This document shows positions 21,545-64,000 of a stretch of DNA of 64,000 bases, one piece after another. The notes beneath the pieces are model-generated. The model saw nothing but the letters and a program-made list of their open reading frames with translations, did not search any database and was not told the origin of the DNA. Position 1 is the stretch's first letter. The number at the start of each line of letters is the position of its first letter. Origin of the DNA: Squalus acanthias (Eukaryota); contig CM059426.1 in the NCBI GenBank assembly GCA_030390025.1, forward strand, positions 184,016,001 through 184,080,000, read 5' to 3'. Both the position numbers and the translations under genes were made by a program.

Positions 21545-22448
21545 TGCCTCTTTTCCGCAGCGTGCTAAACTCCGCCACTTAAAATTGATGTTAAAGATTA
21601 ACAAGTTCTTCCCTGTCTGGAAGGAATCCCTTAAGGCTGCACAGTTCATTTTTTTTTGCTGCAATTCAGTTGCAAGCTACACCGATTGTTTTCAGTGCTC
21701 CCTCTAACTGGGGGATGAACAAGAACAAAGAAAAGATACCAGCGAGATCAGATAGCACCAGATAAGGGCTAGTTTCATCTGGCATTATGCTACCAACAGT
21801 ATCTACAGGCTCTCAGAGCAGTGATGTCGGAGAACTGCCTCCAAAGGCTGAGATTTAGGAGGTTAGCGGTTACAGAGCTGTGACATCTCCTTCAAGGAGA
21901 CCTGTAGCCAATCTCCAGCAACTGGCTGGCACTGCCAGTTGGTGATGAATGCCATCCTCTTTTATCCCTCCAGCTCCTTCCAGGTTAGCTCAGGAAAGAT
22001 CTGAAATATATCAGCCAATTTACCGTTCTGAGATGTATCAAAAGGTGACAAATGCATTGTTCAGCTTCACCAACACGTTCCCACTGAATACAGCAGTACC
22101 ATGAGGGTGCTGTCCAATTTTATCACATGTAGGATATCCCAAAGTAAAGGGGTCACTGGATGGCACATGAGGCCACCTGGGCTTTTAGGCACAATGAAGA
22201 GAAAGGGGCATCTTGGAGATCACGACCTTATCTGGTGCTATCTGATCTCGCTGGCATCTTTTCTTTGTTCTTGTTCATCCCCCAGTTAGAGGGAGCACTG
22301 AAAACAGTCGGCATAGCTTGCAATTGAATTGCAGCAAAAATAAATGAACTGTGCAGCCTTAAGGGATCCCTTCCAGACATGGAAGAACTTGTTAACCTTT
22401 AACATCAATTTTAAGTGGTGGAGTTTAGCACGCTGCGGAAAAGAGGCA
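21545..22448. repeat. ~223-bp inverted repeat (21545-21767 / 22226-22448) around a 458-bp spacer
   Basis: The arms are reverse complements with scattered mismatches. Confidence 0.9.
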
Positions 22449-22700: not shown

Positions 22701-23111
22701 ATAAAGCCTGGTGATTAAGGTGCTCCTCCAAAAGACATTGTCCTAGAAATTGGAGATCGCTAAAAACCTGCCGATATCACCGCGGGCCGGAGTTAGCGGC
22801 CGCGAAAATGATGGCACTGGCAGGACCTGGGTATTGGCACTGGTGGCTAAGTAACATTAGCCCAGCACTAAACTCACTGTGCAAGGCCGTTTTCGTGGCG
22901 TTAGTCCCGGCGGGGGCCCAATGTCGCGTGGCCGTAGCGTAATTGCAGCAAGAACAGCCTGCTCTTAAAGCAAGGCTGTCATTTCAGAAAGCAGTGTGGT
23001 CCCTTAAAAGGGGAACTGCCTTCTAACATGAAAAAAATAAAAATCATTTAAAAATAGGCAGTTTTTAGCCTTTCCAGCTCAACTGCCTTCTGAAAAAATA
23101 TTTAGTATGCT

Positions 23112-23148
23112 TCACCTGACGAAGGAGCAGCGCTCCGAAAGCTTGTGA
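23112..23148 (+). ncRNA. Minimal type I hammerhead ribozyme (Penelope pLTR fragment ~23099-23200)
   Basis: TCAC-CTGACGA-A-GGAGC-AGC-GCTCC-GAAAGCTT-GTGA: stem I, CUGANGA core, 5-bp stem II, GAAA, palindromic AGCT stem III. Candidate TSD TGAAAAAA (23091-23098 / 23201-23208). Confidence 0.8.
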
Positions 23149-24473
23149 TTTCAAATAAAGCTGTTGGACTATAACCTGGTGTTGTGCGACTTCTCACATT
23201 TGAAAAAAAATTAACCTTAAAAAGAAGTCCCAAGTGGGAGTCTTCAGCTCTTAAAGCTGAATTGCCTTCCACACCCAGAAAAATGGGAAAAGTGCTTCAG
23301 CACTAACACAAATGGCTCAGCAACCCAGGGAAGGGACACCCAGGATCTCACACACAGCACTCCAGCTTTGTGTAGGGGGTCAACACTGCAAGAGAAGTCC
23401 TTTACTCACAGGAGGCCCTCCAGAAAGATCGATGTGGGACCACATCACTGAGGCCGTCACTGCCAGCAGTGTCGCCCACACGACCTGGCTTCAGTGCCCA
23501 AAGAAGCTTCATGTCCTCTGACCAGTGGTCAAGGTCAGTGAATGTATCTTCAAAAGCTGCCTCCTACCAACTGCACCACTAGCCTCACACACTGCTCAAT
23601 GCACAACACCCCCCCATGCCCAACATCCCCCCCACGCCCCCCACCCCCGGCCAATCACTCACCTACCAACAATCTGTACCTAACACGAGGTACACCTCCC
23701 ATTCCTAGCTTCACCTCACCCCCTTGGAGGGGAAGGTGCTGGCCATTCTTGACAGGGGCATGCCCAAGCCCTTGGCCAGCGGCAGGGCTGAAAAGATACA
23801 AGATGCTGGTATCCTCATACGTTATCCTCCTTCTCGCATGCACCACTTGCTTTCCCGCCCTCCCATCACCACAACTCCACCCTTATACCTTGCTCATTTC
23901 ACACACCCAAGAAAAACAACCTTCCCAGCCAGTGGTTGACCAAGAAGAGGGAGAGGAGATCGAAGAAGAAGAAACGCCGTCACTCAATCTCACACTCCCA
24001 GCCACCAGCTCCTTAAGGTCGACCAGCAAGGCCATTTGCAGTGCACTGAAAGTCAGCAGCCTTCCACCAGCCATGCTGCAGCCACTGGGGTAGCACTGCG
24101 TGACATCAGTAAGATAGGGAAAGGCACACTCAAGGCAGTCACTAAGGGAATGCATAAGGGTGATTAGTTGATTTCTTGATGCCATATTGGATGGATAGAT
24201 GTATAAAGTTGGATTGGAAAGTTTGCTTTGTGGTGGCTTTTATTTCAGCATTGTGGCCAAGAGGACGCTGTAAGAGAGGGAAGGGAAGGTGTGGGACAAA
24301 TGTTGAAAGGGGAATTGGGGTTGTGGTCACTGGTACCACAGCTGGATGATTCCATCCTGGATGTCCCAGCCAGAAAGGGGCTGTCTGGGTTGCATCCTTC
24401 CTTCTGTTTCTTTCTGTTCTGCTTCCTCCTCTTCTGTGACTTCCTCTTCTGCGTATTCCTCTTCCCTCTGCTC

Positions 24474-29441: not shown

Positions 29442-29556
29442 CATGATGCGGAGATGCCGGTGTTGGACTGGGGTGGACAAAAATGAGAAGTCGCACAACA
29501 CCAGGTTATAGTCCAACAGTTTTATTTAAAATTATGAGCTTTCGGAGCTCCGCTCC
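29442..29556 (-). mobile_element. Solo Penelope pLTR fragment with half a hammerhead (stem II + GAAAGCT)
   Basis: Matches 23125-23200 and 54061-54132; 11-bp TSD GCTTAAGAGAT at 29431-29441 and 29557-29567. Confidence 0.85.
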
Positions 29557-31340
29557 GCTTAAGAGATAGTAGCCTCGTCCATCCTTTCTCTAGCCACATG
29601 GTAAATGGAATGTTCCGCCCTGACTGCACAGATGTGGCTCGCGGGCTCCTCCTCCACACTCCCAGCCAGATCCTGCAGGGTATTTTGGTCTGACTCAAGT
29701 GACTCCTGTGGACAATCTTGCTCTGACAGCAATGTATTTTTTGAAGAAGGTCCTGATGTCCAAATACCTAGGCCCGGCAGCTGTGGATGGAAGAAAGCTT
29801 GCTGTTTGGCCAGCGCTTCCTGCTGTTTAACTGGCACCACCACTTGTTCTTCCATGTGCAATGGGACTGACCTGGTGTGACTTCCTCAAGCTCGCTATCT
29901 GCTTTCTCTGGAGTGGGTGTCGTTGTGCTTACGCTTGTGATAGTTGCCGATAATGACATGGTGATGTGACGTGTTGCTGGCATTGCTGCTAGGCTGTGAA
30001 TAGAGGGGAAAGTTTTAACAAGTAGGATAGTACTTGTCCTGAGTTTGGAGAAGGCCTCCAACTTTACGCTCTCCTGCTCTCTCTCTCCTTGCACAGCTTG
30101 TGATGTCCTGTGTGGTCTCTTTTAAAGGAAGTCAAGAGTTCTGACATATATGGGGCCTTACCCATTTGGGTCTGCTCCTTTCTGTTATGTACCACCTTAA
30201 TTCTGCAAATGGAGAATTAGGCTTGAGAGTTGCAAGTTTAAAGAGCAAATACAGTGGCACACATGACTATCCTGTAGCCCATTCTTTCTGTGATTAAATG
30301 AGCATGCATCATGCCAATTGGGTGTGTGCACCCTCTAACATATCAGTGTAATAACAGTTTCAGTTGTAAATTGCAGGTTGAATTTGTGCTGTGCTGCAGT
30401 GTGCTGTGCATGGGAAGCATTAAGTGTTGAGGTTGTATGAGTGTTTACCACAAGGCCAGAATAAGATAAACAGTTTATGAGGAAAGAGTTTGTTTCATGC
30501 TTGCTTGGGGGCAGCTATAGGAAACTGTAGAGTAACCTTACTTGGCAGCTTTCCTTCGGCCTGTCAGCTTCCTCAGTAACAGCCAGGTTGACTAGGTGTT
30601 GCTGTCAGCCAAGTATTTTGGATCACCTTTTTTCAGTGTGAAGAAGGCAGTCTTTCTTAGCCTCACTTCAGGCAGTAAGATTTAAAGGGCAACATCTGTG
30701 AAGCTGGGCATGAACCCTGGATTTCACAGGAATTATGCAGCTTTAATCCCCTTCCTTAGCCCTTTAAAGTTTGTATCAGTTTTGCGAGCACGCCCTCAGA
30801 AAGCAGGCAGGAGGTCAGATTTCAGGCAGAAGCATCACTGTAAAAAAAAAAGTCTGTTGGATCTCTTGCATCCACCTGAATTGAGCCTCGATAAGGATTG
30901 TAATGAAGCGAGGAGCTGGAGAATGGAGAATCTAGAAATGCTGCCTTTTGAAAGATATTGATGTCTAACACAATAGACTTTTAATGGAAAAAGAAAGTGA
31001 CGTTTTGATTTTTAACAGAACCAGTCATCACTTCTCCAAAAGTTTCCTTAGTAGTCACTCTCCCACATCCAAATCCTTCGCTCCCAAATCCCAGTTCAAA
31101 GATGCACTCTACCCTTTCTGGACCTAGGGCATAAAGATACTGCAACCCTCCCAGTTTATCCGGCACTCTTCTCCCTCCCACTCAGTTCAAGTTGACACTC
31201 TTCTTCCACAATCCCATTCAACCTGGCACTATTCTTCCCCTCTTTCAAACTGGCATTGTTTTTTTGTTCATGTTGTCACGCTTTCCCTCCCTCAGATCAA
31301 GGTTCATAATGGCATTCTTCTCTCTTCCTTCCTCCCCCCT

Positions 31341-32168
31341 CAGTTAATGCTGGCCATCTCCCCTCTCAGCTCCCTTTCAGTTAATGCTGACCATCTCCCC
31401 TCTCAGCTCCCTTTCAGTTAATGGTGACCATCTCCCCTCTCAGCTCCCTCTCAGTTAATGCTGGCCATCTCCCCTCTCAGCTCCCTTTCAGTTAATGGTG
31501 ACCATCTCCCCTCTCAGCTCCCTTTCAGTTAATGCTGGCCATCTCCCCTCTCAGCTCCCTCTCAGTTAATGCTGGCCATCTCCCCTCTCAGCTCCCTTTC
31601 AGTTAATGGTGACCATCTCCCCTCTCAGCTCCCTTTCAGTTAATGCTGGCCATCTCCCCTCTCAGCTTCCTTTCAGTTAATGCTGGCCATCTCCCCTCTC
31701 AGCTCCCTTTCAGTTAATGCTGGCCATCTCCCCTCTCAGCTCCCTCTCAGTTAATGCTGGCCATCTCCCCTCTCAGCTCCCTTTCAGTTAATGGTGACCA
31801 TCTCCCCTCTCAGCTCCCTCTCAGTTAATGCTGGCCATCTCCCCTCTCAGCTCCCTTTCAGTTAATGCTGACCATCTCCCCTCTCAGCTCCCTCTCAGTT
31901 AATGCTGGCCATCTCCCCTCTCAGCTCCCTTTCAGTTAATGCTGGCCATCTCCCCTCTCAGCTCCCTTTCAGTTAATGCTGACCATCTCCCCTCTCCGCT
32001 CCCTCTCAGTTAATGCTGGCCATCTCCCCTCTCAGCTCCCTTTCAGTTAATGCTGACCATCTCCCCTCTCAGCTCCCTTTCAGTTAATGCTGGCCATCTC
32101 CCCTCTCAGCTCCCTTTCAGTTAATGCTGGCCATCTCCCGTCTCCGTTCCCTTTCAGTTAATGGTGAC
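31341..32168. repeat. 37-bp minisatellite, ~22 copies
   Basis: Unit CAGTTAATGCTGGCCATCTCCCCTCTCAGCTCCCTTT; contiguous, no spacers. Confidence 0.97.
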
Positions 32169-45029: not shown

Positions 45030-47020
45030 TTTTTTTAAATATTTATTTTTGGGTTGTGGGCGTCGCTGGCAAGGTCAGCATTTATTGCCCATCCCCAGTT
45101 GCCCTTGAGAAGGTGGTGGTGAGCCGCCTTCTTGAACCGCTGCAGTCCGTGTGGTGAAGGTACTCCCACAGTGCTGTTAGGGAGGGAGTTCCAGGATTTT
45201 GACCCAGCGACAATGAAGGAACGGCGATATACTTCTAAGTCAGGATGATGCGTGACTTGGAGGGGAATTTGGAGGTGGTGTTGTTCCCATGCGCCTGCTG
45301 CCCTTGTCCTTCGAGGTGGAAGAGGTCGCGGGTTTGGGAGGTGCTGCCGAAGAAGCCTTGGCGAGTTGCTGCAGTGCATCTTGTAGATGGTACACACTGC
45401 ATCCACGGTACGCCAGTGGTGGAGGGAGTGGATGTTTCAGGTGGACAATGGTAACCCCCAGGATATTGATGGTGGGAGATTCGACGATGGTAATGCCGTT
45501 GAATGTCAAGGGGTGGTGTTTAGACTCTCGCTTGTTGGAGATAGTCATTGTCTGGCATTTGTGTGGCGCGAATGTTACCTGCCACTTATCAGTCCAAGCC
45601 TGAATGTCGTCCAGGTCTTGCTGCATGCGGGCATGGACTGCTTCATTATCTGAGGAGTTGTGATTGGCACTGAACACTGTGCAGTCATCAGCGAACATCC
45701 CCACTTCTGATCTTATGATGGAGGGAAGGTCATTGATGAAGCAGCTGAAGATGGTTGGGCCTACGACACTGCCCTGAGGAACTCCTGCAGCGATGTCCTG
45801 GGGCTGTGATGATTGACCTCCAACCACCACAACCATCTTCCTTAATGCTAGGTATGACTCCAGCCAGTGGAGAGATTTCCCCCTGATTCCCATTGACTTC
45901 GGTTTTACTAGGGCTCCTTGATGCACTGTCGACGACACCTTCCATCACTTTGCTGATGATTGAGAGTAGACTGATGGGGCAGTAATTGCCAGATTTTTGT
46001 GGACAGGACATACCTGGGCAGTTTTCCACATTGTCGGATAGCTGCCAGTGTTATAGCTGTACTGGAACAGCTTGGCTAGAGGCGCGGCTAGTTCTGGAGC
46101 ACAAGTCTTCAGCACGACAACCGGGATGTTGTTAGATGATTGTGGGATCGCTTATCTCTGTCTATAGCACTTTGCTTCTGCTTTTTAGCATGCATGTAGT
46201 CCTGTGTTGCAGCTTCCCGAGGTTGGCGCCTCATTTTTAGGTACGCCTGGTGCTGCTCCTGGCATGCTCTTCTACACTTCTTATTGAACCAGGGTTGGTC
46301 CCCTGGCTTGATGGCAATGGTAGAGTGAGGGATATGCTGGGCCATGAGGTTACAGATTGTGGTGGAATACAATTCTTCTGCTGCTGATGGCCCATAGCGC
46401 CTCATGGATGCCCAGTTTTGAGCTGCTAGATCTGTTCTGAATCTATCCCATTTAGCACGGTGGTTGTGCCACACAACACGATGGAGGGTGTCCTCAGTGT
46501 GAAGACGGGACTTCGTCTCCACAATGACTGTGCGGTGGTCACTGCTACTAATGCTGTCATGGACTGATGCATCTGTGACAGGTAGATTGCTGAGGACGAG
46601 GTCAAGTATGTTTTTCCCTCGTGTTGGTTCTTTCACCACTTGTCACAGGCCCAGACTGGCAGCTATGTCCTTCAGGACTCGGCCAACTCGATCAGTAGTG
46701 GTGCTACCGAGCCACTCTTGGTGATGGACATTGAAGTCCCCACCCAGAGTACATTCTGTGTCCTTGCTGCTCTCAGTGCTTCTTCCAAGTGGTATTCAAC
46801 ATGGAGGAGAGCTGATTCATCAGCTGAGGGAGGGCGGTAGGTGGCAATCAGCAGGAGGTTTCCTTGCCCATGCTTGACTTGAAGCCATGAGACATCATGG
46901 CGTCCGGAGGCAATGTTGAGGACTCCCAGGGCCACTCCTTCCCGACTGTATACCACTGTGCCGCCACCCCTGGTAGGTCTGTCCTGCTGGTGGGACAGGA
47001 CATACCCAGGGATGGTGATA
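45030..47020 (-). mobile_element. Internally deleted copy of the 57534-60670 LINE family
   Basis: EN and RT peptides (VPQGSVVGP, MFADD) near-identical to the 58453-59958 ORF; same 3' tail. Confidence 0.9.
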
Positions 47021-47066
47021 GATATGTTCAAATGAAGATGGTGTGTGACTTCCTCTGATTTATATT

Positions 47067-47809
47067 GGCCCAGAAATTGATCTCGCTCTGTTCCCGCGGG
47101 GGTAAGGAGCAGGCGCGATCTCTCACTCCGCGTTGGCTTTTTCAGATCCAGCTCGCACGAACTTGATCTTCTAGACATCAGCTGGGCAGTGCTTGCGTAT
47201 CCCACCGGCGTAGTGAATTCGTGCGAGCTGTGGGATCACGTGACTCAGTTAGAGCCAATGGCAGCACACCATCTTCCATTCATAAGTTTCACATACGTGC
47301 TGTGAAAGCTATGAATCTTACACACCACCAAAATAACAGCTAAACCTCAATTAAATTTAAAAAAAAACCATCACATTAATAAAATAAGTATAGTTAAATA
47401 AATTAACCATTTTAAATAAAAAATTAAATTTTTGAAAAAATTTAAAATCTTTTAAAAAGTTATAAAAATAAACTTACCTGTCTTTAAAGTCTCTAAAAAA
47501 GATATACCTGTTAAAAAAAATTCAAAATAATACTTAATTCACTACTTACCTTGTTAAAAGAGGGTCTTACTCCTCCTTTTTTCATTTCTAAAATCTTCCG
47601 TACTTACCTGCGCGTCCAAAGCACGAAGTGCACAGCGTGCGCGCAGCCTGTAGCGCGCACGCGGTGCACCGAGGAACCGCCCCCTTTTCCAAAAACCAAG
47701 TGCCGGTTTTCAGCGCATGCGCAGGGCATGCAGAAAACCGGCAATTGGAGAGAGAATACGCGAGAGTACGCAGTGCGTACTCTCGCGTAGCGGCATCAAT
47801 TTTTGGCCC
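47067..47809 (-). mobile_element. Harbinger-type MITE (743 bp), diverged relative of 44094-44859 in opposite orientation
   Basis: TIRs GGCCCAGAAATTGA / GGGCCAAAAATTGA (rc); TSD ATT at 47064-47066 and 47810-47812. Confidence 0.9.
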
Positions 47810-48400: not shown

Positions 48401-49669
48401 ATCATTTTGCAGGCATATCCTTGACATCTATTTTTATTGTGTGGCATAAAATTAAAGGGAGATAATCATGAAAGAAGGACAAAGCTGTGTGTGAGGTTGT
48501 TAGCTAGACTCGCTATCGAGCACAATGTAAATTAATGCTTTGACTGATAGCCCACTTGGCTGGCTGGAAATCTGGATGGCTCTGGTGCATAAATCAGTTT
48601 CAACCCATAATGAAAACTGAGAATTAGCTCTTTTCTTTCCCCCTAAATTACCTCAGAAGTAGAAGTTTCAAATTAACATCTAATTAACATTTAATTGATT
48701 GGATTAAATTTACCCAGAACTATTCATGTTTAATCATATTTTGAGGTTCAAAATATATTTGGATCAGATGCTGTAAAATGTTCAGATGTCCCCTTTTTAA
48801 AACTGCCATTCTAAGGAAGATCTGAAATCGAAATTGATATCGTGAATAGCTTGTAGCATTTGATTGACTTCAGAAAATGATGACTTTCATTTGTTATTCA
48901 TGTAGCCCTTCAGGAGAATATGGTAATATCTTTTCTGTAGGCATGGCATTATAATAATCTTTCACTGAAATTACAGCCAAATAATCCACCAATTGATTTA
49001 TTTCCTTTTATCTGAATTGGTTTAAATGGGAAAATAATTTTAGCCATTCTTTTATCATTCTCTTTGTGAATGAGAATTTTTTTTTTTACAGCTTTTGTAG
49101 TTACATAGTTACGTAGTATTTACAACACAGAAACAGGCCATTCGGCCCAACAGGTCCATGCCTTCGAACCCATTTCATTGCAGTTTATTAACTGTATAAA
49201 GTCTGAGTAATTGTGTTGAATTCTTGTGTTCTAATGCTGCTGTGCCAAACCACAGGATGCATCTAAAAATGGTTCAATATCAGTTAACATTTTAATCATA
49301 GCACCACTGGTGAGATTATTACTCCTTCGTCAGGTGAAGTGAAGAGATGCATATAGACACAGCATATATAGTCAGAGAACACTGCCAGATGATTACAGTT
49401 AATCTTTCTAACTGCCCTTTATCACACCTCGGCAGAGAGATAATCACGGCAATCAAAGGTGTGGATGGTGTCCAAACAGGTCAGTCAGGAAAACATTACA
49501 TCAAAGACAATGAGGTGGGGTCACAAGGGGTCAAATGTGGCAGATGCTGGTGTCTGTATGGAAAACAAAAGACTTTTTTTGCTGGAAATCACAGCAGGTC
49601 CGGCCGCATCTGTGTAGAGAGAACAAGCCAACGACGACTCGAGTCTGCATGACTCTACGTCAGGTGGGG

Positions 49670-49837: not shown

Positions 49838-50368
49838 GATTTCAAATAAAACTGTTGGGGGTAAAAATTCACTTGGTTGCGCCTCCCGTTAGCGCCTTAA
49901 GAGGGCGCTAATGGGGCGTTAAGCCGCTAACGCCCGGGCGCAGCGCTGTTTGCGCCGCTCGAGAACTTAACTTGAGATCGTGCGGCGGCGCTAAAACTTA
50001 CCGCTGCGACCACCTGCGCGCGCAGATTGTGACGTCATTCCATGGTGCAACGCCCTTGGGGCGCTCCGGAGCGGAAATTGAGTGACGCCCCCTGCCTTAC
50101 CGCCTGGCGCTTCCAACGACCGGAAGACTGGAACGTTATCAATCGGTGTGGGGCTGGGGGGGGCGCTATTTAAAGGGGGCCTCTTCCTGTCTTTTTCTGT
50201 GGTCGACATTTATGCACCACTCGTTCTGAGAGAGAGAGAGAGATTCGGAGAGAGAGAGAGAGAGACTTCTACATTGACTCAACGCTTTGTGAGGTAGTTT
50301 TGCCTATTCATCCTAACTTTGTTGCTACTTTAGTTGCTGTACCTCATTACTTTTCTGGCAAAGAGAAT

Positions 50369-51529
50369 ATGGGGGCTGCAATGATTGGGGGCGTCGTCCT
50401 GCTCCAGCTGAATCGGAGGATACAGAGACGCAGACAGAGAGTGGCAATGATGGCCAGACGGAGGAGGGCCATCAGGCGCATGTACAGGAGAGCTTACCCT
50501 CCCAGGGTATATCGTGAACAGCTCTCCTACATCCATATGTCCGAGGAGCTGTGTTTGCGGAGGCTGCGATTCAGCAAGGAGGTGGTCACTGAGCTCTGCC
50601 ACCTGCTGCAGCCAGATCTGCAGCCTCAGCTGAGGTCCAGGACGTCTCTGTCGGTGGCAGTGAAGGTCACAGTGGCTTTGAACTTCTATGCCACTGGCTC
50701 ATTCCAAGCTGCTGTTGGGGACCTCGCCAATATCTCCCAGTTTGCGGTGCATCGCTGCATCCGGCAGGTCACCAATGCCCTCTTCAGAAGGAGACGAGAC
50801 TTCATCTCTTTCCCTATGACCCCAGACAAGCAGCGTGACCGTGCTCTGGGCTTTGCGAGGGTAGCGGGCTTCCCCATGGTGCAGGGCGCCATTGACTGCA
50901 CGCATGTGGCTTTGCGTGCTCCGCGAGAGAATGCAGAGGAATTCAGGAACAGAAAGGGGTTCCATTCCTTGAATGTGCAGTTGGTCTGTGACCACAGACA
51001 GGTGATACTCGCTGTCAATGCCCACTATCCGGGCAGCTGCCACGATGCTTTCATCCTGCGCCAGACTACTGTGGCAGAAGTTTTCGAGGCACCGCATCAG
51101 CCAGTTGGTTGGCTTCTGGGGGACAAGGGGTACGCATTGAGCACCTGGCTGATGACACCGCTCCGTACGCCAAACACCCCTGCTGAGCTGCGGTACAATG
51201 AAAGCCATCAAGCAACCAGGAACATTATTGAGCGCACAATCGGCGTGCTGAAACAACGGTTCCGCTGTCTGGACCATTCCGGAGGAGCCCTGCAGTACTC
51301 GCCTGAGCAAGTTTCGAACTTCGTAGTCGTGTGCTGCATGTTGCACAACATGGCAATCCTCAGGACCCAGCCAATGCCACCAGGCCTTGTAGCACCACCA
51401 GAGGAGGAGGAGGAAGAGGAGGAAGAGGACGAGGACGATGATCATCAGCAGCACCAAGGCAGGAGGGCGGCCCACAATGGTCAAACTGCAAGGGCCGTCC
51501 GTCAACGACTAATAGCAAGCCGCTTCTAG
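50369..51529 (+). CDS. Harbinger DDE transposase (HARBI1-like), 386 aa, single exon
   Basis: First ATG at 50369. Motifs GAIDCTH, NRKGFHSLNVQLVCD, PGSCHDAFIL, LGDKGY, RNIIERTIGVLKQRFRCL, CCMLHN; acidic tail. Confidence 0.95.
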   Translation: MGAAMIGGVVLLQLNRRIQRRRQRVAMMARRRRAIRRMYRRAYPPRVYREQLSYIHMSEELCLRRLRFSKEVVTELCHLLQPDLQPQLRSRTSLSVAVKVTVALNFYATGSFQAAVGDLANISQFAVHRCIRQVTNALFRRRRDFISFPMTPDKQRDRALGFARVAGFPMVQGAIDCTHVALRAPRENAEEFRNRKGFHSLNVQLVCDHRQVILAVNAHYPGSCHDAFILRQTTVAEVFEAPHQPVGWLLGDKGYALSTWLMTPLRTPNTPAELRYNESHQATRNIIERTIGVLKQRFRCLDHSGGALQYSPEQVSNFVVVCCMLHNMAILRTQPMPPGLVAPPEEEEEEEEEDEDDDHQQHQGRRAAHNGQTARAVRQRLIASRF

Positions 51530-51823
51530 GGCCCCTGCCATTGCTACAAACACTAATCAACCCAGCACGCAACCCCTAAGCCGGCCAAGGCACCAATAAT
51601 TCCAACCACCAGCCATGTATATTTTGAATACAGAAACTTATTTATTTTACAAACTCTGTGTGTGTCAATTCCTCATGACAAACTCATAGAAATAAACACA
51701 AAAAAACAGTCAATAACATAACTGGTTCTCACAACCTGGAGATAATGTCCAAAACACTAAACAAAAGTTGGACCATGAACCTCGACCTTTAATAAAAAAA
51801 TGACCAGCATTTTGTCACACCTC

Positions 51824-53700
51824 CTACTTTTTGCCCTTCGAGGGTGATCTCCTTCCCTTGCGCACTTCCCCCCTTCTAACCCTACTGCTCCTCCGTAATG
51901 GGACCTCAGTGGCTGCAGCAAGGCTGGTGGAAGGCTGCTGCTCGTCAGACCCTGACACTGCAGATGCCCCTGAAGGACGGCCTCGACCACTTCTGGGCCT
52001 GGAGGGCCCGGCTGCAGACTGCACCAACTCTGCATGGGCGGCAGCAGTCTGTCCTACAGGCGGTGGCAAGTGCAGTGGAGAAGTGACAGTGTTGGCAGCA
52101 GGAATGCTGTCATCGTGAGAGAGGACAGCAACTCCCTGCTCGCCCGACACACTGGCACTCCCACGGGGCAGCACTTCAGCATCCGGAGCAATCTGCCGGA
52201 GAACAGATTGCTGGCCTGCTGCGGCGCGGTGACAGCCCCGGGGACATGTGCACGAACCATCGAGGTTGGCAGCAGTCTGTGCTCGCGTGGCCTCCATCTG
52301 AGTCTGTATGAGAGCAGTCAGAGGTGGGATCACGGCAGCCAGTGACTGAATTGCAGCACTAAGCGTTAGTGTGGCATCCGCCTGTGCTACAGCGAAGTGC
52401 TCCACACTCCTTGCCAGTGACTCAATGCAATCGGGCACCCTTCCCACTGCACCCATGAGCTCAGTGTGCATGCCCACCGCCTGGGTGTTCATTTCTGCAA
52501 TCAGCCGCTCCTCCTCTGCGTCCATTGCAGTAGGAGTGTCTGGCATACTCTCCCTCTGGGGAGAAGGCCCCCGTTCTTCCCTACCCCCCCCATGGCGTTG
52601 CTGCAGCCCGCTGGGTCCTGGAGCTTCACCATCATCAGCCCCTTCCCCCCTGCTCCCCTCCGGGGAAGGCGTGTTCCCAGTGTGGGCATGGGCTTCCTCG
52701 GGAGAGGGTGGCACTGATGCTCCGGCTTCCTCTTCCTCCTCAGCTGCAGCATCACTCCCAGTGGCAGCTTCAGGGCCCGTCTCCTCAGCTGGTGAATCAC
52801 CATCTGAAAGCAGGGAGGTACAAGAGTGGCTTTAGCGTGAGGACAGGGTGGCAGTAAGGGAGGAATAAGTGCAGCGAGTTAGCAAGTTGGATTGAAAGTG
52901 TCAAAGGCTGGTGTTGTGAGGGACAAGTGGAAGGACAGAGGACAAAAAGGTGATGACCTTACCATTGCTGTCCAGAACGGGGTCGGCGTCTCCAGTGGCG
53001 ACGGGACCGATCACCCGGCTTGTCACAATCCTGTGGACGCACTCCTCCAGATCGCTGAGGGGTTGCAGCTGAAGCCGCCCTCCACCTGTCCGTTGCTGCT
53101 GTCTCCTATTATGAGCCAACTTAGCCTGCAAGAAAAAGGACAGCATCTGAGTAAATATGCAGCCATGGTCTTGCCTGATGTGCCTCCCATAGGTGAATAG
53201 CCCTTACAATATACAGCCATGGTCTTGCCTGATGTGCCTCCCATAGGTGAATAGCCCTTACAATATACAGCCATGGTCTTGCCTGATGTGCCTCCCATAG
53301 GTGAATAGCCCTTACTGTATGCAAAGTGTGGAATGTGTGTGTGTGTTTGATGAAAGGGCCATAGGTGTTGGATGAGTGTTGTGCATTGGGGTTTTAAGAC
53401 CCTCTGGCCATAGAGTGAGGTTGAGATGGAGGGATGGAGAGGTATTGAGAAAAAGCCACTCACCCTGACGACCCGAGTGAGGTCGTTGAACTTTTTGCGG
53501 CATTGAGTATGGGTCCTGGGCACCATGCTCCTGGAGGAGACGCTCTGAGCCACCTCCCTCCACACTCTTCTGAACTCGCGTGGCAAAGGCCTCCTGCCAC
53601 TCTCAGGGAACAGCATACATCGTCTGCGCTCCACTGCGTCAACCAGAGCATCCAAGGCCCGCTCGGTGAAGCGATGAGCGCGTTCTCTCACCCTCTCCAT
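51824..53700 (-). CDS. Harbinger Myb/SANT-like DNA-binding protein, 3 exons (53700-53464, 53125-52963, 52803-51824), ~459 aa
   Basis: Exon 1 MERVRERAHRFTERALDALV..WREVAQSV..RTHTQCRKKFNDL. GT-AG junctions (gtgagt/cttgcag phase 0; gtaagg/ctttcag phase 1) join all three open exons in frame. Confidence 0.85.
53160..53315. repeat. 54-bp tandem repeat (~2.9 copies) in Myb intron 1
   Basis: CAGCCATGGTCTTGCCTGATGTGCCTCCCATAGGTGAATAGCCCTTACAATATA starts at 53160, 53214 and 53268. Confidence 0.95.
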
Positions 53701-56219
53701 ACTTGGCAGCAAAATGGATTACAGGTCTCTCCAGGCCGAGATTCAAGGCTGCAATGAGCAGGGTGTGGCTGGGGAGCAAGTGGCCCCCCCCGCTTTAAGA
53801 AGTGTCCGGCGCCAGTGTGTCTGTGTTCCCTCGCTAACTGGCAGCAGCTGCGCTGCGCTCGCGCGCTGAGTTAGCGCCTCACTCCTTGGCCTTTGCGCCT
53901 TAAGAGAGGTGTGCAGCGCCTGCTTTAGCGCTCCACTCACCTCCCGGGGCGGTAAAAGTGAAGTTTCCTGTCAGTGCCGATAATTAGCGCCAGGCGCTAA
54001 TATTTGCGTCCGGACGATATTTGCGCCCCAAATGGGGCGCGACCTAATTTCTACCCCTTGGACTATAACCTGGTGTTGTGCGACTTCTCACATTTGTCCA
54101 CCCCAGTCCAACACCGGCATCTCCACATCATCGAGATTATTACAGCATTGGTAATTCCCAAAACAACTGTCTTTTGCTAAGTGGAAGTTCATTTCTGTGG
54201 ATTTACACCCTTCAAAGTTGCTGGTTTCCTGTTTTCTTGGCGTTGTGCCAGTCTTCCAAAATAAAGAAAATAAGTAGTTTATAAAGTTGCCATGACTATT
54301 TGGCCCACAATGTCTCCACCAACTCTTTGATGAAGTGATCCAAAACTAATCCCATTGCCTTGCTCCCTCTTCTCTCCCCTCCCCCACCTTGGCCCTGTAA
54401 CTCCTTTGCTACAAATGCTCATCTACTCTTCTCTTACAAGCTGCATTGTCACTACCTCGACTACTCAAAATATAGCAAATGTATTGGCCAGGAATCAAAC
54501 CCAGGTCTCACATTGTTGAATTCTAATGCTTTCTCCAAGGAGCTCCTCGTAAATGTGTTTTGTTGCTAAAGAACCCTCTTGTGAAATACACATGCACTGC
54601 ACTGTAATACAGTGTTCTCAATCTGCAGCCTAATACTTACCATTCTAGATAGTCAAGTGCACTTCATCAAACAAAAGCACAAAAAAACGCTGTCGGAGAG
54701 GTTTTACAGCCCAAGTGCCAGAACGTAGAATAACCATCATACTTAATACTCTGTGCATTACTCTAGCATCAGTGCAAAGTGGTTTTGCTTCACACCTATG
54801 CTGCAGAATTTGTATAACTGCAGCTTAAATCTGTCATTAGGGCCCAATCTAACGTTGGAGCAAAACTGAGCTTTGAGCTTATACTAATATAAGTTTCGTG
54901 TCAATGTGAACCAAAAGCTACTTTGTGCCAATGCTCAACTTTTATTGTCGGTCAACCCCAAGTAACACAGTAGCATTCCGTATCTGTGTGCTGTTGTTCA
55001 AATGTTAATTACAGCACCATTATACATTTACCAGTGCTTGTAATCTAATAATGCACATTGCTTGAGCGGGAAGTTGATTGTAATTTTTAAGCCATTTCTT
55101 ACAGTTGCACTGTTTGTGGAATTACAAAGGCACCATAGCACGATGTCATTTGGTCATGAAACTCTGTGCATTGGCCTCAGGGATTAGGGTTTCTGGCTTT
55201 CGCTGTTTATTTTGGACATTTTCTGGTTGAAGTAAAAGTTGAATTTTTCAGTGCTTCTCATTTTTATTTTGTAAAAAAAAAATGTAGAATCCAAGCAAAA
55301 TCTTGGCACAAATTCTAAAGATTGGTTTGACAACACCTCTGCTTCAGCTGATAGGAGTTTTCACTGAAGAGAGAATTTAGCAGCAGTCTATCAGCAGGGA
55401 AAATAAGAGTGTGGGCGTGGGATCCAAAGCTGACCTTGTTATATCAAGAAAGAGCTAGTTCATGTCGTAAGCAATTAAAAAACAATTTAGGTTTTCAGTC
55501 GGTGCTGTGGCCAACGACCACCAATTACACTTTCTTTTTAAAATTGGGGGAGAAGAGCAAGGGCTTTATCGGGTTTCATTGGTTTAACCCAACAATTGGA
55601 AAGCCTGGTTGTAATAAAGGATCTACCAACTTAAAACATTTGAAAAGTATTTTGACAAGTTAGTGGTTTACTTTTAAAAGGAAATCTTTGATTTTTAAAC
55701 CAAGCTACTTAAAATACATAAAGGGCAAAGCAGATGGAAAGCAGCAGTGATTAACATACAAATAGAGTTGTACTGATGCAGCTGATATCAGAGAATCAAA
55801 GAATTTACAGCACAGAAGAATGCCATTTGACCCATCTTACATGTGTCAGGGTTGTCTACTCTAATCTTACTTCCATTTCAAATGCTTTCTTATTTAAAAG
55901 AGGACTGAATTATACTGTCTATGCTTCAATTGCCGCTTATGATAAAGCGTTCCATGTTCCAATATCCCTCTGAGGAAAACATTTCTTCTGACTTGCCTTT
56001 GTTCTTCTGGTGATGGTAAGAACATAAGAAATAGGAGCAGGATTAGGCCATTCAGTCCTCCGAGTCTGCTCCGCCATTAAATAAAATCATGGCTGACCTT
56101 CGACCTCAACTCCACCTTCTTGCAAAATCCCCATATCCCTTGGTTCCCATAGTATCCAAAAATCTATCGATCTCTGTCTTGAATATACTCGGGTTATAGT
56201 CCAACAGTTTTATTTGAAA

Positions 56220-56257
56220 TCACAAGCTTTCGGAGCGGCTGCTCCTTCGTCAGGTGA
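56220..56257 (-). ncRNA. Minimal type I hammerhead ribozyme in the Penelope fragment 56191-~56546
   Basis: Reverse strand TCAC-CTGACGA-A-GGAGC-AGCC-GCTCC-GAAAGCTT-GTGA; core intact. Confidence 0.8.
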
Positions 56258-57533
56258 AGTGAAGAAATACAAATGGGCACAGCATATATAGACAGAGAAC
56301 AATGCCTGTGCAGAGAACAATGCCAGACAACTACAGTTAATCTTTCTGACTGCCCTTTATCACACCTCGGCAGAGAGACAATCACGGCAATCAAATCCAA
56401 CCAGGTCAGTCAGGAAGACATTACATCAAAGACAATAGCAAAATACAACAAAGACAATGAGGTGGGGTCACAGGGGGTCCAATGTGGCAGAGGCTGCAGT
56501 CTGTATGGAAAACCAAAAACTTTAAACTTTTTACTTTTTTTACTGGACGACTGAGCATCCATAGCCCTCTGGGGTAGAGAATTCCAAAGATTCACCACCC
56601 TCTGAGTGAAGAAATTTCTCCTCATCTCAGTCCTAAATGGCCGACCCCTTATTCTGAGACTGTGACTCCTAGTTCTAAACTCCCCAGCCAGGGGAAACAT
56701 CCTCCCTGCATCTACCTTGTCAAGTCCTGAAGAATTTTATACATTTCAATGAGATTACCTCTCATTCTTCTAAACTCTAAGGAATATAGGCCTAGTCTAC
56801 TCAATCTCTCCTCACAGGACAATCCCCCCATCCCAGGAATCAGTCTAGTGAATCGTTGTTGCACTTCCTCTAAGGCAAGTATATCCTTCCTTAGGTAAGG
56901 AGACCAAAACTGTACACAATACTCCAGGTGTGGTCTCACCAAGGCCCTATATAATTGCAGTACGACTTCTTTACTCTTACACTCCAATCCTTTTGTAATA
57001 AATATTAACACACCATTTGCTTTCCTAATTGCTTGCTGTACCTGAATATTAACTTTCTGTGATTCATGTACAAGGACACCCAGGTCCCTCTGAATACCAA
57101 CATTTCCCAATCTCTCACCATTTAAAAAATATCCTGTTTTTCTATTTTTCCGACCAAAGTGGATTTCTCCACGTTATATTCCATCTGCCACCTTCTTGTC
57201 CACTCACTTATCCTGCCTTAATCCCTTTGCAGCCTCTCTGCATCCTTCTCACAACTTACTTTCCACCTAGCTATCATCAGAAAACTTGGATACATTACAC
57301 TTGGTTCCCTTTTCTAAGTCATTGATATAGTTTGTAAATAGCTGAGGCTCAAGCACAGATTATTGCGCTACCCCATTAGTTATAGCCTGCTAACCCAAAA
57401 ATGACCCATTTATTCCTACTCTCTGTATTCTGTCCGTTAACTAACCCCCAATCCCATGATCCCTAGATTTGTGTAATAACCTCTTGTGTGGCACCATCTC
57501 GAATGCCTTCTGAAAATCCAAGTACACTACATC

Positions 57534-60500
57534 AGTATCCGTCATGGTAACCATGAAACTATCGGATTGTTGTAAAAACCCATCTGGTTCACTAATGTCC
57601 TTTAGGGAAGGAAATCTGCTGTCCTTACCTGGTCTGGCCTATATGTGACTCCAGACCAAAGCAATGTGGTTGACTCTTAATTGCCCTCTGAAATGGCCTA
57701 GCAAGCCACTCAGTTGTAACAAACCGTTACAAAACAAAAGAATAATAAAAATGAAACCGGACGGACCACCCGGCATCGACCTCGGCATCGGCTACAGACA
57801 TGGCAACAGCACACCCAGCCCAGTCAACCCTGTAAAGTCCTCCTCACCAACATCTGGGGACTTGTGCCAAAATTGGGAGAGCTGTCCCACAGACTAGTCA
57901 AGCAACAGTCATACTCACAGAATCATACCTTTCAGCCAATGTCCCAAACTCCTCCATCACTAATCCTGGGTATGTCCTGTCCCACCGGCAGGACAGACCC
58001 ACCAGGGGTGGCGGCACAGTGGTATACAATCGGGAAGGAGTGGCCCTGGGAGTCCTCAATATTGACTCCGGACCCCATGAAGTCTCATGGTTCAGGTCAA
58101 GCATGGGCAAGGAAACCTCCTGCTGATTACCACCTACTGCCCTCCCTCAGCTGATGAATCAGTACTCCGCCATGTTGAACACCACTTGGAAGAAGCACTG
58201 AGAGTAGCAAGGACGCAGAATGTACTCTGGGTGGGGGACTTCAATGTCCATCACCAAGAGTGGCTCGGTAGCACCACTACTGACCGAGCTAGCCGAGTCC
58301 TGAAGGACATAGCTGCCAGTCTGGGCCTGCGACAGGTGGTGAGAGAAGCAACATGAGGGAAAAACCTACGTGACCTCGTCCTCAGCAATCTACCTGTCAC
58401 AGATGAATCAGTCCATGACAGAATTGATAGCAGTGACCACCGCACATTCCTTGTGGAGACGAAGACCCGTCTTCACACTGAGGACACCCTCCATCGTGTT
58501 GTGTGGCACTACCACCGTGCTAAATGGGATAGATTCAGAACAGATCTAGCAGCTCAAAACTGGGCATCCATGAGGTGCTATGGGCCATCAGCAGCAGCAG
58601 AATTGTACTCCACCACAATCTGTAACCTCATGGTCTGGCATATCCCTCACTCTACCATTACCACCAAGCCAGGGGACCAACCCTGGTTCAATAAGGAGTG
58701 TAGAAGAGCATGCCAGGAGCAGCACCAGGCGTACCTAAAAATGAGGCGCCAACCTGGGGAAGCTGCAACACAGGACAACATTCATGCTAAAAAGTGGAAG
58801 CAGCATGCTATAGACAGGGCTAAGCGATGCCACAATCAACGGATCAGATCAAAGCTCTGCAGTCCTGCCACATCCAGTCCTGAATGGTGGTGGACCATTA
58901 AACAACTAACGGGAGGAGGAGGCTCCATGAATATCCCCATCCTCAATGATGGTGGAGCCCAGCACATGAGTGCAAAAGACAAGGCTGAAGCGTTTGCAAC
59001 CATCTTCAGCCAGAAGTGCCGAGTGGATGATCCATATCAGCCTCCTCCTGAGGTCCCCACCATCACAGAAGCCAGTCTTCAGCCAATTCGATTCACTCCA
59101 CGTGATATCAAGAAACGGCTGAGCACACTGGATACAGCAAAGGCTATGGGCCCTGACAACATCCCAGCTATCATGCTGAAGACTTGTGCTCCAGAACTAG
59201 CTGCGCCTCTCGTCAAGCTGTTCCAGTACAGCTACAACACTGGCATCTATCCGACAATGTGGAAAACTGCCCAGGTGTGTCCTGTCCACAAAAAGCAGGA
59301 CAAATCCAATCTGGCCAATTACCGTCCCATCAGTCTTCTCTCAATCATCAGCAAAGTGATGGAAGGAGTCATCGACAGTGCTCTCAAGCGGCACTTACTC
59401 ACCAATAACCTGCTCACTGATGCTCAGTTTGGGTTCCGCCAAGACCACTCGGCTGCCGACCTCATTACAGCCTTGGTCCAAACATGGACAAAGGAGCTGA
59501 GTTCCAGCTGTGAGGTGAGAGTGACTGCCCTTGACATCAAGGCAGCATTTGACCGAGTGTGGCACGAAGGAGCCCTCGTAAAACTGAAGTCAATGGGAAT
59601 CGGGGGGAACATTCTCCACTGGCTGGAGTCATACCTAGCACAAAGGAGGATGGTTGTGGTGATTGAAGGTCAATCATCACAGCCCCAGGACATTGCTGCA
59701 GGAGTTCCTCAGGGCAGTGTCCTGGGCCCAACCATCTTCAGCTGCTTCATCAATTACCTTCCCTCCAACATAAGGTCAGAAATGGGGATGTTCGCTGATG
59801 ACTGCACAGTGTTCAGTGCCATTCACAACTCCTCAGCTAATGAAGCAGTCCATGCCCGCATCCAACAAGACCTGGATGACGTTCAGGCTTGGGCTGACAA
59901 GTGGCAGGTAACATTCGCACCACAGAAGTGCCAGGCAATGACTATCTCCAACAAGTGAGAGTCTAAGCACCTCCCCTTGACATTCAATGGCATTACCATC
60001 AACATCCTGGGGGTCACCATTGACCAGAAACTTAACTGGACCAGCCACATAAATACTGTGGCAACAAGAGCAGGTCAGAGGCTAGGTATTCTGCGGTGAG
60101 TGTCTCACCTCCTGACTCCCCAAAGCCTTTCTACCATCTACAAGGCACAAGTAAGGAGTGTGATGGAATACTCTCCACTTGCCTGGATGAGTGCAGCTCC
60201 AGCAACACTAAGAAGCTTGACACCATCCAGGACAAAGCAACTCGTTTGATTGGCACCCTCTCTACCACCTTAAACATCCACTCTGTCCACCACTGGCGTA
60301 CCGTGGCTGCAGTGTGTACCATCTACAAGATGCACTGCAGCAACTCGCCAAGGCTTCTTCGGCAGCACCTCCCGAACCCGCGACCTCTTCCACCTAGGAC
60401 AAGGGCAGCAGATGCATGGGAACAACACCACCTCCAAGTTCCCCTCCAAGTCACGCATCATCCTGACTTAGAAGTATATCACCGATCCTTCATTGTCGCT

Positions 60501-60670
60501 GGGTCAAAATCCTGGAACTCCTTCCCTAACAGCACTGTGGGAGTACCTTCACCACACGGACTGCAGCGGTTCAAGAAAGCGGCTCACCACCACCTTCTCA
60601 AGGGCAATTAGGGATGGGCAATAAATGCTGGCTTTGCCAGCAATGCCCACATCCCATAAACAAATAAAAA
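57534..60670 (+). mobile_element. CR1/L2-group LINE with a single EN+RT ORF (disrupted), SINE-like 5' leader and no visible ORF1
   Basis: TSD ACATC at 57529-57533 and 60671-60675. EN starts ~57830 (VLLTNIWGLVPK..GDFN..SDH). RT in the 501-aa ORF 58453-59958 (AMGPD, NYRPISLLS, LDIKAAFD, VPQGSVLGP, MFADD). Confidence 0.9.
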
Positions 60671-62689: not shown

Positions 62690-63870
62690 TTACAAATCCT
62701 GGTGGCAGATCTCCACCCCAGGGAGAGAGCCCAGGGGTTTTCCGATGAAGCTTTGGAGGCATTGGTTTTAGCGATGGAGAGAAGGCGGGCGATCCTGTAC
62801 CCGTCAACTGGCAGGAGGCCCTCGCCACAAGTCTGCCAGACTATGTGGAGGGAGGTGGCACACCACGTCACGGGCAGCACTGTGGTCCCCAGGTCCCACA
62901 CCCAGTGCAGGAGAAAGTTTAATGAGCTCACACGGGTGGTCAGGGTGAGTGAAGGCTTCAACAAATGCTACATCCCACTATCTGTACCACAAGCTTCACA
63001 CCCCCAGCACTCACCCACCAACAATCTCTACATAGCAACACTCACACCCACATCTCACACCTTGCACACAATGACAGCTATTCAACTATGGAAGGCACAA
63101 GGGTCATTAATTATTAGAATTCATGTAATATGTGTGATATGTTTATAGATAAATTTATTAATGGTCTTTGGAATATTTTGTGGCCTCTCGCATTTCACCT
63201 TTGCGCCCAGGAGGACGCTTTGATATAGCGTGAGACAGGGATTGTATGATGGGAATGTGGTGAGAAACGGGGATCTGGGGTTTCATTCATTCGAATCGCA
63301 GTCTGATGAGCCGGTCACGGACAGCCCGTCTGGAAGGCCGATTGTCTCGCTGCCTCCTCCCTCCCTCCTGTTCCCCCTCCTCCTGCTCATCCTCTTCCTC
63401 CTTGTCCTCCTCCTCCTCGTCCTCCTCTGACTTGTCCTCCTCCTGAGGTGGTCCTGCAATCCCTGCTGGCAAGGGCTGCGCCCTCATGATGGCCAAGTTG
63501 TGGAGCATGCAGCAGACCACCACGAAATGGGACACCCGCTCTGGCGAGTACTGGAGGACTGCTCCCGAGCGGTCAAGACAGCAGAACCTTTGGCGATGGT
63601 CTGCTCGATGATATTCCTGGTGGCAGCGTAGCTCTCATTATATGAGTGCTGGGCACGAGTGTTGGGGTTGCGGAGGGGAGTCATGAGCCAGGTGGAGAGC
63701 AGATAGCCCTTGTCTCCCAGCAGCCACCCTCGAGCTTAATGTGGTGGCAGGAAGAGTGCTGGCACACCGGTCTGGCACAGGATGAAGGCATTGTGGCTGC
63801 TGCCAGGATAGCGGGCATTGACATTGAGGAATTTGCTGTCTGTGGTCACACACCAACTGTACATTAAGTG
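62690..63870. pseudogene. Second, deleted and decayed Harbinger: Myb exon 1 (+, ~62710-62944) and transposase C-terminal half (-, 63287-63870)
   Basis: GFSDEALEALV..WREVAHHV..RSHTQCRRKFNELTRVVR|gtgagt; [33 protein letters not shown]; same convergent layout as 49858-54057. Confidence 0.85.
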
Positions 63871-64000
63871 AGTGAGTAATTTTTAGCAAGTGTTGTACTT
63901 TGAAGCCTTTCAAAAATAATGAGGGAGTTTTGTACTTGCCAGAACACTCCCTGATACCAAAAAACCTTGAAATGACTAAGGAAAACTCTTCCAGTAGCAG

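Follow-up and report, generated by a model that had tools for sequence, protein, structure and literature searches.

A two-gene Harbinger element and its insertion site

The stretch of DNA analysed here, a 64,000-nucleotide segment of the Squalus acanthias genome (contig CM059426.1, positions 184,016,001 to 184,080,000 of the forward strand; hereafter the window), contains a complete two-gene cut-and-paste Harbinger transposon of 4,200 bp (positions 49858–54057), flanked by a TTG triplet on each side, in which both reading frames are unbroken. The plus strand carries the DDE transposase gene and the minus strand a gene for a Myb/SANT protein. The ends of the element, with its terminal inverted repeats (TIRs) and target-site duplication (TSD), are made up as follows:

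49838–54131 (49838–49857 and 54058–54131), plus strand: interrupted host repeat, delimited by alignment to other copies in the window
49855–49857, no strand: left TSD, TTG, a true duplication according to three empty-site paralogues
49858–49869, plus strand: left TIR, 12 bp, 11 of 12 letters identical to the right TIR
49889–49994, no strand: three subterminal TTAGCGCC/GGCGCTAA motifs (starts 49889, 49904 and 49987), candidate Myb sites found by motif count
53871–54000, no strand: four subterminal TTAGCGC/GCGCTAA motifs (53871, 53925, 53984 and 53994), found by motif count
54046–54057, minus strand: right TIR, 12 bp, found by inverted-repeat comparison
54058–54060, no strand: right TSD, TTG, from the empty-site paralogues

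The two TIRs read GGGGTAAAAATT at the 49858 end and GGGGTAGAAATT at the 54057 end. As the element sits inside a common repeat, the TTG duplication could be tested against uninterrupted copies of that repeat: the flanks joined with one TTG align without gaps to three of them (23147–23202, 29443–29532 and 56192–56221), whereas the join with two TTG requires a 3-base gap against each of the same three copies, so that the TTG is a true duplication. A pair of TIRs and a clean TTG duplication had both been claimed in the preliminary description of this DNA, and both are borne out.

The heptamer TTAGCGC/GCGCTAA occurs 15 times in the 64-kb window, and 14 of these occurrences fall in the ends of the element (seven) or of a 740-bp miniature inverted-repeat transposable element (MITE) described below (seven); the subterminal motifs are candidate binding sites for the Myb protein. 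The CpG-rich ends noted earlier were also recovered, with observed/expected ratios of 1.12 at the left end and 0.82 at the right end versus 0.40 for the whole window. The target site agrees with the 15-bp target consensus of the zebrafish element Harbinger3_DR, AAACACCWGGTCTTT (PMC3016246), at 10 of 15 positions, a level reached at 199 of 63,985 window positions (0.3%). The target site of the MITE agrees at 7 of 15, which 12% of window positions reach.

The transposase and Myb/SANT genes

The coding sequence (CDS) of the transposase and the exons of the Myb gene lie between the ends in the following order:

50167–50174, plus strand: TATA-like box 5' of the transposase gene, predicted from sequence, as are the hexamers at 51641–51696
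50369–51529, plus strand: intronless CDS of the DDE transposase, 386 amino acids (aa), PF13359 with E 2.4e-39, residues D176, D226, D252 and E288
51641–51696 (51641–51646 on the minus strand, 51691–51696 on the plus strand): convergent poly(A)-signal-like hexamers, such that the predicted 3' ends would overlap
51824–52803, minus strand: Myb exon 3, with an acidic linker, a stretch common to shark homologues, a basic tail and a TAG stop, aligned in one frame with the homologues P0124 and P0125
52804–52962, minus strand: putative Myb intron 2, 159 bp, GT-AG, in a low-complexity region with weak homology across it
52963–53125, minus strand: Myb exon 2 (AKLAHNRR...TGGG...LSDLEE), from the open frame and homologue alignment
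53126–53463, minus strand: putative Myb intron 1, 338 bp, GT-AG, from splice signals and homologues across junction 1
53464–53700, minus strand: Myb exon 1, Myb/SANT trihelix domain, PF13873 with E 1.6e-9, 78 relatives

The start codons of both genes have A at position -3 and G at +4. In agreement with the earlier account of an open transposase with its catalytic motifs, AIDCTH, HDA, GDKGY and IERT begin at residues 174, 225, 251 and 287, respectively. Among 3,935 candidates, 385 relatives of the transposase were found at E ≤ 1e-20, the closest being a Pristiophorus protein with 66% identity; shark or ray names are attached to 112 of the best 120 of these 385, and the best 65 are all elasmobranch, in keeping with an elasmobranch host. 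In an alignment with 45 homologues picked by length from the same best 120, the transposase of the window keeps all four acidic residues, which is the case for only 12 of the 45, and, of the 142 columns with a conservation of 70% or more, agrees at 134; its 8 deviations compare with 6–43 among the homologues. The AlphaFold model of the protein (mean predicted local distance difference test score, pLDDT, 88.9; predicted template modelling score, pTM, 0.83) shows a long N-terminal helix and places D176 within a strand, D252 right after a strand and E288 within a helix, a confidently modelled arrangement that agrees with the published description of the superfamily (PMC4482050). No PDB chain was matched in a sequence search with the transposase, and a PDB fold search with the model gave no match at E ≤ 0.001, its weak matches being led by DDE enzymes, TnsB and piggyBac among them. 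Separately, sequence signals alone suggest a possible 69-nt intron in the 5' untranslated region of this gene (50296–50364, plus strand; GAG/GTAGTT ... CAAAG/AGAATATG).

The Myb gene, likewise described beforehand as three exons joined in frame by canonical sites, is open over 459 aa when its two GT-AG introns (338 and 159 bp) are removed, and the predicted splicing is consistent with both splice signals and homology. A HMMER search with exon 1 returned 78 relatives, 73 of which align to the spliced product; junction 1 is crossed by 60 homologues, in 52 of them without a gap, and the Pristiophorus protein P0124 aligns to residues 5–456 at 37% identity. A word-indexed search with exon 3 alone found no relatives. 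Changes that would disable the gene, for example a compensated frameshift near the NLDGSCTCPRG stretch, had been named in advance as a way in which intactness could fail. At this stretch no indel is listed in any of four sequencing runs introduced below, a frameshift-compensation scan against 14 pooled Myb homologues gave no gain, and the homologue P0125 aligns in frame across it with G, RG and AAGQQSVL kept. The only gain above 2 in the pooled scan, 13 points, came at the basic tail (residues 446–453), where long contigs of runs X8 and X16 match the window without gaps. Intron 1 also contains three copies of a 54-bp minisatellite unit (53154–53315; copies 99% alike).

Derivatives, neighbouring sequence and known systems

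The window holds an end-only relative of the element:

1077–1816, minus strand: non-autonomous MITE, 740 bp, inserted in the open reading frame (ORF) of a CR1-like long interspersed nuclear element (LINE), composed of the left 460 bp and right 274 bp of the element and flanked by a TAT duplication

Its identity to the element is 94% over the left 460 bp and 95% over the right 274 bp, and the LINE frame is continuous across the site with one TAT. The MITE is an internal-deletion derivative of the element.

Other traces of Harbinger elements were also observed. A decayed second copy of another family (62720–63883; 67–72% DNA identity to the element) has Myb exon 1 on the plus strand (56% aa identity) and, pointing toward it from the minus strand, a disrupted transposase of which the C-terminal half is present; the remaining Myb gene is deleted. 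A remnant at 6889–8571 (minus strand) comprises a Myb exon-1 fragment (8467–8571) and an ORF (6889–7404) resembling exon 3 of the shark homologues, and further plus-strand remnants consist of an N-terminal transposase fragment (21824–22042) and a Myb tail fragment (24016–24161). The host repeat interrupted by the element has copies at 23110–23202 (plus), 56192–56259 (minus) and 29443–29556 (minus); upstream of the fuller ones (near 23110 and 56259) lies a hammerhead-like CTGACGA...GAAA core, which we take to be the hammerhead of Penelope-like elements, without an Rfam match: a scan of the window at gathering scores returned no family. A 37-bp unit is repeated in tandem at 31335–32168 (22 copies, 94% matches), and a reverse-transcriptase-bearing element lacking long terminal repeats is represented by two copies, 92–94% alike, at 45040–47235 (minus) and 57953–60666 (plus; 533-aa open stretch at 58357–59958). 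The remaining window is mostly CR1-like LINE debris, and no host gene is evident among its ORFs of at least 150 aa.

All four features of the PIF/Harbinger superfamily in its broad sense, namely a DDE ORF, a Myb/SANT ORF, short TIRs and a 3-bp TSD, are present. The 12-bp TIR lies inside the published range of 5–60 bp (PMC4482050) and below that of 25–50 bp (PMC9179366). The TWA duplication of PIF/Harbinger in the narrow sense (Han et al. 2015) is found at neither of the two sites, TTG and TAT, which are too few for a family consensus; the CWG duplication of NuwaI is likewise found at neither, TTG agreeing with it at two of three letters. Since these duplications fit neither rule, the element was not filed in any subgroup. 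It nevertheless resembles NuwaI (PHIS superfamily, PMC4482050) and Harbinger3_DR in its GGG ends, size and target. Like NuwaI, it occurs in an animal host, encodes DDE and Myb/SANT proteins from two ORFs, starts with GGGG, has TIRs of 12 bp (NuwaI range 12–61) and is 4,200 bp long, near the NuwaI mean of about 4.4 kb, whereas NuwaI is defined by its CWG duplication.

Harbinger3_DR shares with the element the DDE and Myb-like genes, the 3-bp TSD and the target agreement given above, a comparison drawn from published descriptions of the zebrafish element. That transposon has a CWG duplication and was reconstructed (Sinzelle et al. 2008, as cited in PMC3016246, PMC9179366 and PMC9392472), whereas the shark element is a natural open-frame copy. 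A different comparison is offered by Harbinger-Snek of sea kraits, also a mass-amplified vertebrate two-ORF family with short non-autonomous derivatives, of which 269 fully intact copies are reported in Laticauda colubrina, with RNA reads over both ORFs in L. laticaudata (PMC8437027). The suggestion that an intact vertebrate copy is a rarity is therefore not supported. Harbinger-Snek was acquired horizontally from marine invertebrates, whereas close relatives of the shark element span many sharks and rays, which suggests a long residence in this lineage. Those relatives are elasmobranch gene models labelled as host genes, HARBI1 or 'myb-related transcription factor, partner of profilin-like' (Pristiophorus, Heptranchias, Scyliorhinus, Mobula, Narcine and others), with a best identity of 66% in the transposase and, for the Myb protein, 37% to P0124 over nearly the full length; 33 of the 45 aligned lack at least one catalytic residue, while the element keeps all of them.

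Across eukaryotes, families with two intact ORFs have been counted at 88 for PIF/Harbinger and 11 for NuwaI (PMC4482050). A recent, expressed Harbinger burst is described in Pleurodeles (PMC5741667) and a spontaneous Harbinger insertion in the nematode C. inopinata (PMC13668399). In cartilaginous fishes, reports of the whale shark and grey reef shark genomes list Harbingers no further than the superfamily (PMC8455134, PMC12498223), and PMC9179366 reports none in the elephant shark and calls for checks in other cartilaginous fishes. The protein collection searched has no entry identical to the window protein, and the literature search, which left most subscription papers, Repbase and Dfam outside its scope, returned neither a description of this family nor a cell-based test of a natural vertebrate Harbinger; the family may already carry a name.

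Family abundance and the state of the copy

The element was detected in 20 of 21 listed sequencing runs, runs of organism A containing up to 0.89 of its sampled words. Contigs from four runs were aligned to the stretch, namely X1 and X2 (DNA of organism A), X8 (labelled organism C) and X16; the two DNA runs of organism A yielded 41,057 and 60,001 fitting contigs, flanking repeats included. Summed contig depth, which is not equal to copy number, amounts to 2.6e5–1.4e6 inside the element versus about 16–18 in the unique flank on the right. When the lowest interior bin is divided by an assumed largest contig overlap factor of 31 and by the flank depth, a rough lower bound of about 320–800 copies results, in line with a very abundant family of several hundred copies or more, a bound that depends on the assumed factor. 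The near-identical copies expected of an active family in the preliminary description are thus found as a large family in the reads, the element copy lying about 1% from its majority sequence: long contigs differ from it at 23 of 2,154 letters (X8) and 17 of 1,618 (X16), or about 1.1%. Among the coding indels listed at 10% of depth or more, only one occurs, an in-frame 3-bp change at 52584 in the Myb gene, and none falls in the transposase; among 35 of 194 variant rows, 17 are coding (11 missense, 6 silent and 0 nonsense).

The age of the insertion is less readily read from these values. The unique flank differs at 4 of 596 letters from X1 and at 3 of 576 from X2 (0.5–0.7% between haplotypes); compared with the one-lineage allelic depth that this implies, the family majority is more distant by a factor of about 3.5. 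At the mutation rate of the epaulette shark, 7e-10 per base per generation (PMC10587355), a distance of 1.05% corresponds to about 1.5e7 generations, a figure that serves only as an upper bound, since differences between subfamilies contribute to the distance and the rate has a wide interval. Variants at 30–70% of depth do occur in the family and point to subfamilies, so that part of the 1% may predate the insertion, which could be younger. Conversely, a divergence of about 1% in slow-mutating sharks need not mean a recent event, and from the retained CpG it follows only that the element is not very old. Joints from 49858 to about 54064–54069, among those listed, were considered as an empty allele and rejected, their short side of 19–21 letters being as in host-repeat paralogues; the flanks are high-copy repeats, which weakens the scoring of insertion polymorphism from joints. 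As a separate observation, one X8 contig at 54058 shows the right end of one element, 10 other letters ending in TAT, and then the left end of another, so that two members of the family lie almost back to back.

Taken together, the evidence leads us to favour, by a modest degree, the reading of the element as a full-length two-gene PIF/Harbinger that was left in good preservation by a burst now over or tailing off and whose proteins probably still work; we infer both its catalytic competence and its age. Several observations weigh against this reading. Transposase residue A256 is P in 33 of 45 homologues and A in none. In the Myb protein, C108 and D258 are near-private to this copy, essentially all of the family depth having R at the former and 94–99% having E at the latter, and one-to-one frameshift scans against P0124 and P0122 gave shifted-frame gains of 7–16 around residues 313–329, by a blunt test with similar or larger gains elsewhere in the gene. 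None of the runs containing the element is listed as RNA; X16 looks like DNA, a 458-bp piece in it extending without splicing from intron 1 across exon 1, and no splice joint is listed for this run, which speaks neither for nor against the predicted splicing. The limited variant sample means that further private changes may exist, and the copy-number bound depends on the assumed overlap factor.

That the family is transposing now, with this copy as, or equal to, its autonomous source, we consider improbable. Both frames and every catalytic residue are intact, the CpG-rich ends are preserved, many contigs are at least 99% alike (10,856 in X1 and 16,349 in X2, flanking repeats included), and the subfamilies would allow part of the divergence to be older than the insertion. 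Set against this are the distance from the family majority relative to the haplotype difference, the several sites near-private to this copy in a lineage that mutates slowly, and the fact that neither an empty allele nor a transcript was seen in X1, X2, X8 and X16, both being weak tests given the repeat flanks and the DNA-like X16. Accordingly, of the earlier characterization as 'young, possibly mobile', the intactness and the closeness to the family majority stand; youth need not follow from them, and present-day mobility found no support from polymorphism or RNA. The opposite possibility, a copy with open frames that is nonetheless dead through missense or end mutations, too little time having passed for stops or frameshifts, is similarly doubtful. 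It draws on A256 near D252, on C108 and D258, on the single TIR mismatch and on a drift of about 1%, which over 2.5 kb of coding sequence would amount to roughly 25 changes. The deviations at conserved transposase columns are, however, among the fewest in the homologue set, the column of C108 is variable with one homologue having C, the TIRs of the MITE likewise match at 11 of 12 positions, and the structure model of the transposase is confident.

Far less probable still is a domesticated locus of the HARBI1/NAIF1 type, a recent horizontal transfer between distant species, or an artefact of the assembly. Database homologues do carry the label 'putative nuclease HARBI1', and runs labelled organisms B–F, one of which has only 9 million contig letters, contain 0.48–0.70 of the words sampled from the element, a signal that could come from related species carrying this family or from traces of shark DNA. 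The single copy and the missing TIRs and TSD of domesticated HARBI1/NAIF1 genes are, however, not what is found here, where a mobile family accounts well for the TIRs, the TSD, the MITE and the very high abundance; the elasmobranch identity of the best 65 listed transposase homologues and the other Harbinger remnants in the window also speak against these readings. In X8, the sole foreign-labelled run aligned, the element and a neighbouring repeat (49322–49647, 3 differences) are present at about 99% identity, the unique flank is absent and the depth is about 1e-4 of that of organism A. As an unrelated neighbouring repeat is present and the unique flank is absent at this depth, X8 is better explained by traces of shark DNA than by transfer, and horizontal transfer to organism C was rejected.

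For the well-preserved copy that we favour, a mechanism can be proposed from Harbinger3_DR, and the anatomy described here fits each of its steps. Known Harbingers depend on both proteins: the Myb-like one attaches to the N-terminus of the transposase, takes it into the nucleus and also binds the transposon ends, and the DDE enzyme performs cutting and joining (Sinzelle et al. 2008, as cited in PMC9179366 and PMC9392472). In the shark element, transcription of the two genes would start at the CpG-rich ends and converge; the Myb/SANT protein, made from the spliced transcript, would bind the repeated subterminal TTAGCGCC-type motifs and, at its N-terminal part, the transposase, which it would bring into the nucleus; the DDE domain would cut at the 12-bp TIRs and insert the element, at a stagger of 3 bases, into sites similar to AAACAC-NWG-GTCTTT; and the two proteins together may move end-only derivatives, such as the MITE at 1077–1816, in trans.

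Intact vertebrate Harbingers are already known. The element, an ordinary copy in a good state of preservation, is well suited for testing in a transposition assay, and adds a complete elasmobranch Harbinger together with a matching donor MITE. It is possible, if unlikely, that the native shark transposase and Myb protein still move the element and the 740-bp MITE with a strong 15-bp target preference. Were this so, no earlier case of a natural vertebrate Harbinger demonstrated to jump would be on record within the literature searched, where the vertebrate one in print is reconstructed, and the slow-mutating genome of a shark would still be undergoing change by a DNA transposon. Working native proteins would further provide a ready two-component, site-preferring vector without reconstruction, as well as material for structural work on an enzyme with no matched PDB counterpart.

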